Part shown: positions 16,504-21,762 of the stretch, one piece after another
Position numbering within the stretch: the stretch's first letter is position 1
How the letters are laid out: each line of letters opens with the position of its first letter
Source: a virus
Lineage: Duplodnaviria > Caudoviricetes
Virus record (IMG/VR): IMGVR_UViG_3300036391_000025
Location: 1 to 39,062 of that record
Direction: 5' to 3' (one strand)
Length of the DNA: 39,062 nucleotides
Notes under the pieces: model-generated
Databases searched by the model: none
What the model was told of the DNA's origin: nothing
What the model saw: only the letters and a program-made list of their open reading frames with translations
Translations under genes and position numbers: made by a program

Positions 16504-16973
16504 CAGCGCGCACCTTGGACGAGGAAGTCTTCGGCAAACCGGACGATCTCGTTTTCGTTGTCGCCGGACAGGCCGATGTACTGGCGCTGAGGCATCGTCA
16601 CCTGCTTGACCGTGAAGAACTCGCCGCCGCTGGTGAAGCTGAGTGCGTTCTTGTCTTTCGGCTTGATGACACCGCCGTCCTGGTGAATGCCGGCATAGAC
16701 GAGATTAGAGCCGACCTCGACATCCGAGCCGCCGACTTCATGGTGCAGGCTGTCATCGAGACCGCCATCCTTGAACAGGATCGAGGTGCCCTCGCGGTTC
16801 GGCTTCCAGGCATCGCCGCCCGGTGACGTCTTTTCCGATCGGATGCGGCGCTGTGTCTGCGACGTGACGAGAACGCCCAGCGCATCGAGAAAGGCGGGCT
16901 TGTCCGGTTCGGCAATCTTGGCGACCAGTCTTGCGGCTGCTTCAAAGCCACTGGCAACGATCCTCACAGCCAT
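16503..16973 (-). CDS. Virion morphogenesis protein (Mu gpG / tail completion S family)
   Basis: SPGGDAW, VGSNLVYAGIHQDGG, MPQRQYIGLS. Confidence 0.88.
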   Translation of the reverse strand: MAVRIVASGFEAAARLVAKIAEPDKPAFLDALGVLVTSQTQRRIRSEKTSPGGDAWKPNREGTSILFKDGGLDDSLHHEVGGSDVEVGSNLVYAGIHQDGGVIKPKDKNALSFTSGGEFFTVKQVTMPQRQYIGLSGDNENEIVRFAEDFLVQGAR

Positions 16974-16974
16974 C

Positions 16975-17421
16975 TCAAAGGATCTCCGAACCGCGCGTGA
17001 AGAGCCGTTCCTTACTGATGACAAAAACGTTCTTCGAACCTTCGGTTCCCGCAACGCCGGTCGATCCGGAGCTTGCCGGTTCGTTGCCGGCCAGGGTCAC
17101 ATCGCCCTTGGCGATCTTTTCGAGGAGCTTGATGCCGTCCTCGTAACGCTTGCGCATTTCATCGGTACCAGTCGCCCGGTCGCGCGACTGCATGTAGACA
17201 GCAATATCGACCACGGCCGAGACCAGAAAGTCCGGAGGCGTAATCAGCGGGATCGAGTACTTCTTGTCGATGTAGCTGTTGGCGAGGCTGCTCGCCTTTG
17301 TCAGCACGCTGTTGAGCGCCGCATCGTTGCGGGCCTTCAGGTTATCCCGATCGGACAGCTTCAGGACGAACTGGACGCCAAAGGCCAGTTCCATATCTGC
17401 GATCGTTGCGTATTGCGTCAC
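16975..17421 (-). CDS. Mu gp36 (DUF1320) head-tail connector
   Basis: GTG start with SD AAAGGA; YATIADM, ANSYIDKKYSIPL, RYEDGIKLLEKIAKG. Confidence 0.88.
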   Translation of the reverse strand: MTQYATIADMELAFGVQFVLKLSDRDNLKARNDAALNSVLTKASSLANSYIDKKYSIPLITPPDFLVSAVVDIAVYMQSRDRATGTDEMRKRYEDGIKLLEKIAKGDVTLAGNEPASSGSTGVAGTEGSKNVFVISKERLFTRGSEIL

Positions 17422-20209: not shown

Positions 20210-20243
20210 GGCGCTGACCAAACAGCAAGCGCAGACCATAATC

Positions 20244-20265
20244 AGGGGTCCGAAATCGGACCTCT
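20244..20265. promoter_or_regulatory. Late-promoter palindrome, copy 2 (protease/capsid operon)
   Basis: AGGGGTCCG-AAAT-CGGACCTCT. Confidence 0.75.
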
Positions 20266-20493
20266 AGTTTCAGCTTGATGGGGAAGACCGGGAGCAACGG
20301 ATGCGATCGACCGGATGACCAAACCTAACGTCGAACCACAACGGCGGCAAGAGGCATCCTTCAATCAACCTCACAATCGTTTTTGAAGCTGATTTGAAGC
20401 CCCTGGGCGCGCTACAGGGGTGTTGGTAGCGTATCCATGCCTTGAGGCGGGTTATCGCAACCAGCGCCGCGTATTTTTGAAGGCGACTTCAGA

Positions 20494-20522
20494 TTGCTTT
20501 GAGAGGTGTTTCGGGATAAAAG
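20494..20522 (+). promoter_or_regulatory. Putative sigma70 promoter for a small RNA
   Basis: TTGCTT-N17-TAAAAG. Confidence 0.5.
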
Positions 20523-20526
20523 ATGA

Positions 20527-20589
20527 GGGCGCTTCCATCAGTGGGCTGTCACATCTTGGCTGGGAGAGATCACGTCTCCAGGCGCTTCA
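20527..20589 (+). ncRNA. Candidate tRNA-like small RNA convergent on the MuF toxin domain
   Basis: 8-bp closing stem (20527-34/20580-87, with G-U pairs valid only on +) stacked on a 5-bp/7-nt-loop arm (20563-20579); two small arms; upstream promoter. Confidence 0.45.
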
Positions 20590-21762
20590 TTTCCCCAAGT
20601 CTTTCTCAACACGTTTGACGCTTTCGCGGCGACTGTCGCTAGAGGTGAACAGCGTCACCAGTCGGGCAAAGCCAGCACCGGTTTTTCTCATAGCCGCCAC
20701 CCACCACTTGCCGTCGATCTGCTTCCACATCTGGACGCCTTCTGGGCGCTGGATCATTTCGCCCTGGTCGATGATGTCCTGAACCTGGGCAAAGCTCTCG
20801 ATGTCCACGCTGGCGTGCTTGGCCGACTTAGCCGAGATGGCGTAGTTACTGACGGACACGAGACTTCCAGCCGAGCCGAGCCGTTCGGTCACAGCAGGCG
20901 CGATTGCGACCGGGATATCGACGCGCTCGACCATCTTGGAATAGGCCTCGGGCAGACGGCTCGCCCACAAATCGGCGATGGCTTGCTTGACGATCGGCTC
21001 GGGCGCAACGGCAAGGCGATCGGTGAAGCTGCGCATGAGAGTTTTCGCGCGGGCCTTTCCGGGGTTCGTGTGCCAGCCGGGATCGACGCCTTGGGGGACG
21101 CGGGTGATCTCGCCGCTGCGCTTGTTGGTGAAATCCTTCCAGACGATCTCCGGGGCTGATGTCGCGCCGCCAAGGCCTTCCGCCTCGAAGCGGGAGATCT
21201 GGCGCAGCCGGCATTTGCATCCCCAGCCGTTCGGGCAGAAATGCGTATCCCAGAATTCATGATCCACCGGCAGGATGGTCGGCCGGTTCGCCCAGGCCTG
21301 ATGATCCGGCCGATGGTTTTCGGATGGCCCCAGTTCATAGACGAAGTATGGAAGTGCTGCCTTGGTGCGCTGTGCCCGCTCCCACTGGCCGGCTGCGTAG
21401 GCCGAGCGGGTGTTAGCCCAGTAGATCGTCTTCAGCCGGCGCGGGCTGCCGAGCTGCACAATCCTTTCCTCACCGGTGGCTGGATCGACCTGGCGCTTCT
21501 TGCCCCACCAACCGAGTTCCTGAAGTCGAGGCTCAAGCGTCGCGGCAAACTCCTTGAAGGGTACGCCCTCGCGCACGGCCCGTTCAACCTCACTTCGAAG
21601 GGCGCTCAAAACGTCCATGTCGACAGCCTTAGCGACGGTGAAGGCATGCGCGTGTTCTTCGGCCCATACGTCCTGCCAGTGAAACGCCGGCTTAAAGCCC
21701 TTGCCTTCGAGATAGGCCATGGCTTCAGGCGGTGGGCTCTTCTTGCGACTGCTGTCAGCCAT
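20587..21762 (-). CDS. MuF (Mu gp30) minor head protein with C-terminal nuclease-like (PBECR2-type) extension
   Basis: AFTVAK, LGSPRRLKTIY, HRPDH, FCPNGWGCKCR, GVDPGW; extra ~115-aa C-terminal domain. Confidence 0.88.
   Translation of the reverse strand: MADSSRKKSPPPEAMAYLEGKGFKPAFHWQDVWAEEHAHAFTVAKAVDMDVLSALRSEVERAVREGVPFKEFAATLEPRLQELGWWGKKRQVDPATGEERIVQLGSPRRLKTIYWANTRSAYAAGQWERAQRTKAALPYFVYELGPSENHRPDHQAWANRPTILPVDHEFWDTHFCPNGWGCKCRLRQISRFEAEGLGGATSAPEIVWKDFTNKRSGEITRVPQGVDPGWHTNPGKARAKTLMRSFTDRLAVAPEPIVKQAIADLWASRLPEAYSKMVERVDIPVAIAPAVTERLGSAGSLVSVSNYAISAKSAKHASVDIESFAQVQDIIDQGEMIQRPEGVQMWKQIDGKWWVAAMRKTGAGFARLVTLFTSSDSRRESVKRVEKDLGK

Follow-up and report, generated by a model that had tools for sequence, protein, structure and literature searches.

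How might a phage keep a predicted toxin carried on its own head protein in check when no immunity gene follows the toxin? This question is raised by a 39,062-nucleotide viral record (IMG/VR IMGVR_UViG_3300036391_000025), the whole of which is referred to here as the window. A sequence-only reading of this DNA proposed that its MuF protein ends in a nuclease-like toxin domain and that a promoter-driven, tRNA-like small RNA, transcribed against the end of the gene, serves as an antitoxin, a substrate mimic or an antisense regulator.

The MuF gene and its surroundings

The 39-kb record carries genes for a Mu-like transposase, MuB, GemA, terminase, portal, MuF, protease and gpT. MuF (Phage_Mu_F) is a minor head protein of 390 aa encoded on the minus strand at 20587-21759, with its ATG at 21759 (Pfam PF04233, E 1.3e-13), and Pfam matches and neighbor genes place it in the terminase-portal-MuF-protease-capsid module of a Mu-like phage. 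The protein was assigned to PHROG 220 in a PHROG search, its structure model had a pLDDT of 93.1, and its closest named relatives were from Ochrobactrum, Aquamicrobium, Mesorhizobium and Shinella. A MuF protein with a variable C-terminal extension, encoded within the packaging module, is the arrangement of the MuF polymorphic toxins.

A gap of ~350 nt separates the 3' end of MuF from the protease gene. Within this gap in the window, no ORF of more than 62 codons begins on the sense strand, and no such downstream frame is common to the five nearest relatives checked. The small downstream ORF for an immunity protein that is expected of a MuF polymorphic toxin was absent from the window and from those five relatives, which bears out the claim that no credible immunity ORF follows the gene. 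MuF genes with other tails, for example those at loci L056 and L154, do have small ORFs downstream. Two MuF proteins (L141 and L154) have ADP-ribosyltransferase tails, and the small ORF after L154 makes a conventional toxin-immunity layout. The gpG-like neck gene, which in Mu is directly behind MuF, is located after the capsid genes in the window (16506-17054, minus strand), so that a gap remains that houses the RNA element described below. Across related loci the MuF-protease gap is a hotspot of cargo ORFs (L112, L252, L126, L402, L013, L129 and L341), and the cargo in L126 is bracketed by a duplicated MuF end and RNA. Just ahead of the protease gene in the window is a 23-nt stretch (20240-20262) that recurs elsewhere in related contigs and is possibly a late-promoter or activator site.

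The C-terminal domain

The extension after the GVDPGW motif had been put at ~115 residues. Its actual length is 161 residues, of which ~40 are the usual MuF tail and ~120 form a domain (20590-20949, minus strand). The AlphaFold check suggested for the MuF C-terminus gave a nuclease-type BECR fold; this AF2 model, built from 70 homologues, had a pLDDT of 94.5. Both the model and its structural matches agree with the helix followed by a four-to-five-strand sheet by which the BECR fold is recognized. The best match in VIA-align was BrnT (Z 7.2, rmsd 3.1, 75 aligned), and further matches included a Salmonella TA toxin (Z 6.8), CdiA-CT NC101 (Z 6.5) and colicin D (Z 5.6). The top eight rows were all RNase toxins or toxin complexes; every Z was below 8, so the support for the fold is the consistency of the match list and not one strong match. 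Foldseek returned nothing at E <= 0.001 with the domain model. In the ESM Atlas the domain was found among PBECR2, PBECR3 and MuF_C clusters, with feature scores of 0.80-0.82, which are leads only, and structural TM scores of 0.69-0.83.

The predicted active site consists of Lys314-His315, where the first helix of the domain ends (20815-20820, minus strand), and Thr369 in the last strand (20653-20655, minus strand). These residues are invariant in 22 close relatives and are placed as PMC5512222, in its accessible text, locates the PBECR active site. Among 159 domains, the His was at most one column off in 117 and missing in 42, and the Ser/Thr was at most one column off in 154. Pfam names no domain here: the domain in the window did not match PBECR2 (PF18810), PBECR3 or MuF_C, and among 70 family members none matched PBECR2 and 2 matched PBECR3, weakly. 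The description of the extension as PBECR2-like therefore held in that the model and the ESM Atlas point to a BECR-fold, PBECR-like domain, and failed in that the Pfam PBECR2 profile was not matched. The BECR/PBECR label is an assignment of predicted fold and site, not proof of activity. When the domain was searched by itself, viral contigs and cultured phages gave no relatives and a word-indexed search gave one, and comparison with Pfam, PHROG and PDB sequences gave no usable match.

Ten loci (L209, L211, L216, L224, L279, L287, L292, L318, L328 and L360, the last being phage B23) have MuF extensions without the Lys-His helix segment and without the RNA cassette. These extensions may be inactive RNA-binding remnants like Mu gp30.

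The RNA element in the window

On the plus strand, convergent to MuF, is a predicted sigma70-type promoter (20494-20522) whose boxes are as first described, TTGCTT at 20494-20499 and TAAAAG at 20517-20522 with a spacer of 17 nt. It faces a predicted small structured RNA at 20526-20588 (core 20528-20586, 59 nt) that overlaps the MuF stop codon (20587-20589), as had also been noted. The outer stem, 20527-20534 with 20580-20587 including three G-U pairs, is present in the sequence, and its 7-bp family counterpart, the acceptor-like stem P1, comprises 20528-20534 with 20580-20586. Stacked on P1 is P3 (20563-20579), the T-arm-like hairpin of 5 bp with a 7-nt loop. The two small arms that had been drawn between them fared differently. 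The middle hairpin P2 (20548-20560, 4 bp in the window) is common to loci L040 and L169, but the D-like CCA/UGG arm is not conserved, and the GUG of that discarded arm (20541-20543) instead complements CAC in the P3 loop (20571-20573), a predicted pseudoknot resembling an elbow contact. The 3' UUCA, once taken for a feature of the RNA, is the complement of the stop codon and is not conserved; CCA was found there in 0 of 81 family members.

Examined on its own, the element was inconspicuous. In the window, the outer stem has pair probabilities of 0.52-0.97 and the 5-bp arm of 0.86-0.92, with P2 weak at ~0.3. The element alone folded no better than shuffled sequences (z 0.29; 111 of 200 shuffles as good), a consensus promoter scan did not report the promoter, and Rfam, run on 601 bases of the window, matched only a snoRNA at chance level. 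The evidence for the element is for this reason comparative. The -10 box (TAAAAG) is without its last T, and the same TAAAAG is found in L222. Alphaproteobacterial promoters often do not have the final -10 T. Relatives from three other runs, X2 and X5 among them, aligned to the window without gaps from 20489-20491 onward. From there X2 differed from the window by 151 in 1312 letters, and the 79 letters preceding the -35 box were diverged beyond alignment in X2 and X5.

A conserved RNA family downstream of MuF

At least 330 MuF loci were collected from five scans and 15 from two genome searches; the scans kept the best matches, and full-length relatives are thus favored. Enough downstream DNA was available for 258 non-redundant loci, the window included. 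Behind most domains the opposite strand carries a 7-bp stem stacked on a 5-bp hairpin, plus a middle hairpin. Two models were made, R1 from 30 loci and R2 from 38 matches in 100 other loci, and R1 found copies at the MuF stop in many loci outside its training set. In alignment A6, which was fitted to the model and so leans toward the modelled pairing, 14 of 17 pairs changed on both sides (reached by 0 of 500 shuffles), including all 7 pairs of P1 and 5/5 family pairs of P2 (83% paired), and the covariation score was 0.60 compared to 0.05-0.13 for slid partners. The pairing of alignment A4 was rejected as evidence for P1 and P3 because it is circular; its 30 sequences had been chosen by a 7+5-bp scan.

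The pseudoknot entered no model or selection step, yet it covaries. Pairing between the P3 loop and the linker that follows P1 is variant-specific (3.69 bp for cognate combinations vs 3.23 bp, 0 of 5000 permutations), with at least four pairs in 46 of 81 copies. By analogy, we infer that this contact resembles the tRNA elbow. Conservation of structure and covariation downstream of homologous MuF genes, which the sequence-only reading had named as a check, were thus found by model R2, by A6 and by the pseudoknot test.

The promoter is conserved as well. Its family consensus is TTGA(A/C)A-N17-TATATT, and the spacer is 17 nt in 73 of 81 copies, which were chosen partly on promoter score. Among 53 held-out R1 matches, TTG-17-xA was found just upstream in 40. 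The same pattern was present in 2 of 208 windows taken farther upstream and, on the opposite strand, in 0 of 53. The strand and promoter assigned to the element are accordingly those of a convergent sigma70-like pattern conserved among the family loci. Family lengths range from 59 to 103 nt, and there is no conserved terminator or CCA to account for the 3' end. Other subfamilies have expanded loops or canonical T-loops; a canonical T-loop is found in L007-L009, in L043 and, behind a PBECR2/3 gene, in L393. A coding role was rejected, since the family lengths spread over three frames (27, 22 and 32 of 81) and a plus-strand frame of 120 aa is not shared. Judged by sequence comparison, the element appears to be a real and conserved RNA class, apparently undescribed, that is tied to phage PBECR-like nucleases.

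Model R2, built without the window, ranked 20526-20588 (plus strand) first in the window with 24.2 bits (E 0.0058; runner-up E 0.39). Model R1 missed this copy, its descriptor score was 39.9 compared to a threshold of 40, and MAFFT misaligned it against the main family. It groups with L040 and L169 as a subfamily, to which L334 also belongs by eye, and the closing P1 pair is U-A in the window and C-G in L040 and L169. The copy in the window is a weak, divergent member of the family with an imperfect -10 box.

Co-occurrence of the RNA and the domain

A descriptor combining structure and promoter was positive at 102 of 140 loci with a strong domain, 8 of 20 with a weak domain and 15 of 50 with other extensions. 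For MuFs with no extension the count was 1 of 45, and of 510 background windows 2% were positive. R2 matched just one of 46 short-tail loci, L151, a split gene that keeps a remnant of the domain. When the active sites were called blind to the RNA and unclear loci were counted as absent, the element was present behind 135 of 142 intact-site domains and 5 of 17 degenerate-site domains; 11 RNA calls in this table were made by eye and R2 missed ten of them, so the absence calls are soft. Five degenerate-site loci therefore keep the RNA and seven intact-site loci are without a clear copy, and many domains lacking the His still keep the RNA. In phylogenetically independent pairs based on these RNA-blind site calls, 4.5 of 7 went the same way and 0 the opposite way (p ~0.06, not significant), and a set of 3 pairs gave p 0.25. 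A test on hand-grouped pairs (10/10 and 7/7) was set aside because its groups were drawn after the RNA had been seen and 9 unclear loci were dropped. RNA similarity followed that of the domain (partial r 0.195, 0 of 999 permutations) vs 0.079 for the MuF core (57 of 999); adjacency alone could explain this tracking.

The same pattern can be followed in cultured phages. In POA1180 the domain looks intact and is accompanied by the element (48.5 bits). There was no model match at the MuF stop of B23, whose domain has a deleted helix and looks degenerate, or at that of Mu, whose domain looks degenerate and whose next gene overlaps the stop. The Mu domain is called inactive in the accessible part of PMC5512222.

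Moved, duplicated and orphan copies

Not every copy is antisense to MuF and next to its stop. In L139 promoter and RNA are on the sense strand (52 bits), as they are by eye in L019 and L174, and in L112 and L252 an inserted ORF shifts the cassette by ~450 nt. Three Bartonella loci have two or three tandem promoter-RNA units of ~200 nt (L127:3761-4033, L128:1546-1831 and L158:3765-4316). The duplicated units, both in L126 and in Bartonella, include the last MuF codons.

Searches with R2 across 151, 41 and 151 genomes gave 16 distinct matches in 12 genomes. Eleven of them adjoin a MuF-BECR gene or a remnant of one, and the other five are chromosomal orphans in three genomes (G431, G480 and G834). 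Two of the three orphan sites are at the end of a contig in an assembly that may be incomplete. In G431 the orphans form an array (L356:12639-13208, G431:C8) with three significant units and one or two weak ones; it is located at a contig end, and a short repeated sequence comes after it. The neighbors of this array are genes that we take, from their translations, to be ValRS-like and TolC-like. Identity among its units is 52-73%; to phage-linked RNAs it is 92% for unit 3 (RNA of L093) and 85% for unit 4 (RNA of L172). In G480 a single copy is located beside a DEAD-box helicase gene. No MuF or domain was seen in the G431 or G480 assemblies, which are possibly incomplete. In G834 a prophage pair is joined by a chromosomal copy, which follows a dnaE-like gene and has identical pseudoknot letters.

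Proposed function of the RNA

Taken together, these patterns fit an RNA that acts by its shape, in trans, and that is needed when the nuclease is intact. With a probability of roughly 0.6, and on the strength of sequence comparison, we propose that the element is a structure-based RNA antitoxin that provides immunity to a virion-delivered predicted RNase. Among the roles first suggested, that of antitoxin or substrate mimic gains support because the element accompanies intact domains, is retained when inverted and has orphan copies, whereas that of antisense regulator is weakened because sense-strand and toxin-less copies exist.

If the element is such an antitoxin, MuF would be packaged and then injected along with the phage DNA, as has been proposed for MuF toxins in the accessible portions of PMC5576092 and PMC5512222. 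The domain would cut a structured host RNA, most plausibly tRNA, as do the nearest solved folds. The 59-nt element would be transcribed from its own convergent promoter into a tRNA-shaped RNA, and a housekeeping promoter would keep this RNA available in the lysogen and during late expression. The RNA may then bind the nuclease and block it, in place of the usual protein immunity gene. Its 12-bp stacked helix and loop/linker pseudoknot would mimic the acceptor arm and elbow of tRNA, and it would tie up the enzyme in the manner of a non-productive substrate. By taking a copy of the RNA into the chromosome, bacteria would gain protection from phages with a matching domain.

The same co-occurrence, joint loss and freedom of orientation would also be predicted if the RNA were a required partner of the domain, that is, a cofactor, a guide, packaged cargo, or a tRNA-like decoy that would titrate host anticodon nucleases and be processed or chaperoned by the domain. 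The many His-less domains that keep the RNA are in line with such a partnership, and PMC5512222, as far as its accessible text goes, suggests that PBECRs may target RNA-based defenses rather than tRNA. However, toxin-less chromosomal copies and an array of variants would serve a host more plausibly as immunity, and a housekeeping-type promoter opposing the late operon fits protection of the lysogen better than it fits a late virion component. We consider a partner role unlikely, though not negligible. Almost every model match is antisense and either finishes at the MuF stop codon or extends over it, and with no conserved terminator read-through into MuF is possible. The convergent promoter could instead damp leaky expression of the late operon or of MuF in the lysogen by antisense or transcription interference (type I-like), with the structure only stabilizing the transcript. 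Such interference is improbable to us, since the sense-strand (L139, L019 and L174), displaced (L112 and L252) and orphan copies cannot act as cis-antisense RNAs, the RNA scarcely overlaps coding sequence, and selection acts on a tertiary-like pairing.

We give very little weight to a role at the level of DNA or in cis, whether as a recombination site that swaps toxin tips or as a terminator or processing signal of the sense-strand mRNA. Most stem pairs are Watson-Crick and therefore foldable on both strands, and the duplications include the final MuF codons (L126 and Bartonella), both of which such a role would accommodate. It does not sit well with a strand-specific promoter at a fixed distance, with G-U pairs that are functional only on the promoter strand, with the pseudoknot, or with the absence of the element behind extension-less MuF.

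The antitoxin reading can be extended to a broader and more tentative picture, to which we assign somewhat less than even odds. PBECR-type phage-head nucleases would form a widespread conflict system with tRNA-shaped, variant-specific RNA immunity, the first for a delivered polymorphic toxin, and bacteria would accumulate captured variants in chromosomal arrays and so acquire protection from RNases injected by phages. To our knowledge, the immunity factors of delivered polymorphic toxins are generally regarded as proteins, and the few modules known to use an RNA antitoxin all reside in the cell. A virion-borne RNase with a tRNA-shaped RNA as its guard would, if true, join these two fields. Such a pairing would also explain many proteobacterial MuF extensions that have no immunity ORF, and chromosomal copies and arrays without a toxin would amount to a new way in which bacteria acquire protection from phages. 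Since the shape of the RNA points to the substrate, the activity and target of PBECRs would become directly testable. The family adds a structurally diverse RNA class that is absent from Rfam, and matched domain-RNA pairs are possible compact switches.

Comparison with known systems

The MuF polymorphic toxins of PMC5576092 share with this locus a MuF head protein whose variable C-terminus is a predicted nuclease, and a protective element expected downstream. In the accessible text of that paper a small downstream ORF is typical, in contrast to the promoter-RNA cassette found here; many proteobacterial MuF extensions are described as being of unknown type, and no RNA partner is described for MuF toxins. 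The PBECR domains, as presented in the available sections of PMC5512222 and bioRxiv 10.64898/2026.08.28.747851, likewise have the BECR fold, a Lys-preceded His in the first helix, a Thr/Ser in the last strand and fusion to MuF, but the domain in the window, unlike them, falls below the Pfam PBECR2, PBECR3 and MuF_C profiles. Those sections of the two papers describe no RNA partner of PBECR, and those of the preprint make no mention of non-coding or tRNA-like RNA. The open literature searched describes no RNA as a partner of PBECR or MuF domains; the element may be listed, uncharacterized, among the 10,006 candidate RNAs of PMC10690425.

In type III systems (ToxIN, CptIN and TenpIN; PMC12283969, accessible part), an RNase toxin is likewise proposed to be held by a pseudoknotted RNA. 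The antitoxin of those systems is encoded upstream of the toxin as tandem repeats, flanked by the operon promoter and a terminator. The RNA described here is usually single, downstream and convergent, a layout seen in most loci, with its own promoter and a tRNA-like shape, and its toxin is fused to a virion protein. Its loop/linker complementarity indicates a pseudoknotted RNA, with a topology that differs from the H-type pseudoknot. By analogy, the RNA may work like a type III antitoxin while standing outside ToxIN, CptIN and TenpIN by repeats and operon layout. The obligate complementarity to toxin mRNA that marks type I antisense systems is not found in the sense-strand and orphan copies.

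Other likenesses are analogies only. In AbiF/RCd22 of a C. difficile prophage (bioRxiv 10.1101/2025.04.15.648962, accessible text), a prophage RNase is neutralized in trans by an ncRNA that binds it directly; that toxin belongs to the Cas13-linked Abi_2 family in an abortive-infection module with an abiF motif, whereas the domain here is a virion-fused BECR domain. The DUF3800, drum and skipping-rope motifs (PMC5737381, accessible text) provide several unlike RNA structures per protein domain in either orientation, with a different protein family; the 20 loci from this study that were run against Rfam 15 at the gathering threshold gave 0 matches. Orphan T6SS/Rhs immunity genes (PMC10539506, available portion) are kept without the cognate toxin as are the orphan copies here, but are protein genes and not RNA cassettes. 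The element shares with tRNA the 7-bp stem stacked on a 5-bp hairpin, i.e., the acceptor-on-T-stem arrangement, and the contact of loop and linker. It differs in having no D-stem, fixed anticodon loop or CCA, and no cloverleaf was recognized by Rfam or by ARAGORN, which made no tRNA call in the window or in 60 loci.

Other RNAs behind related genes

Genes matching Pfam PBECR2 or PBECR3 were sampled from 301 Pseudomonadota genomes per family, and 5 of the 38 loci were excluded because their flanks were short. A convergent promoter was found in 30 of the remaining 33 loci vs 3 of 33 on the sense strand, and the same test did not tell the strands apart for short MuFs (17 vs 15 of 42) or for degenerate domains (2 vs 1 of 16). 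The sequence downstream of the PBECR2/3 genes is often predicted to form multi-stem RNAs ending at the stop (loci L362-L396, by MFE only), which probably represent several further RNA families.

Elements of other kinds were also observed after the MuF stop. L185 and L319 have longer or sense-oriented hairpin elements with promoter-like boxes, and L079 has a hairpin element with such boxes on the sense strand; all three are unmatched by the models and were counted as absent. A further subfamily of ~100 nt (L032, L035, L038, L047, L055, L071, L075, L106, L147, L190, L193, L202, L272, L290 and L326) has a clear covarying pseudoknot of 5 bp and a strongly conserved 5' segment.
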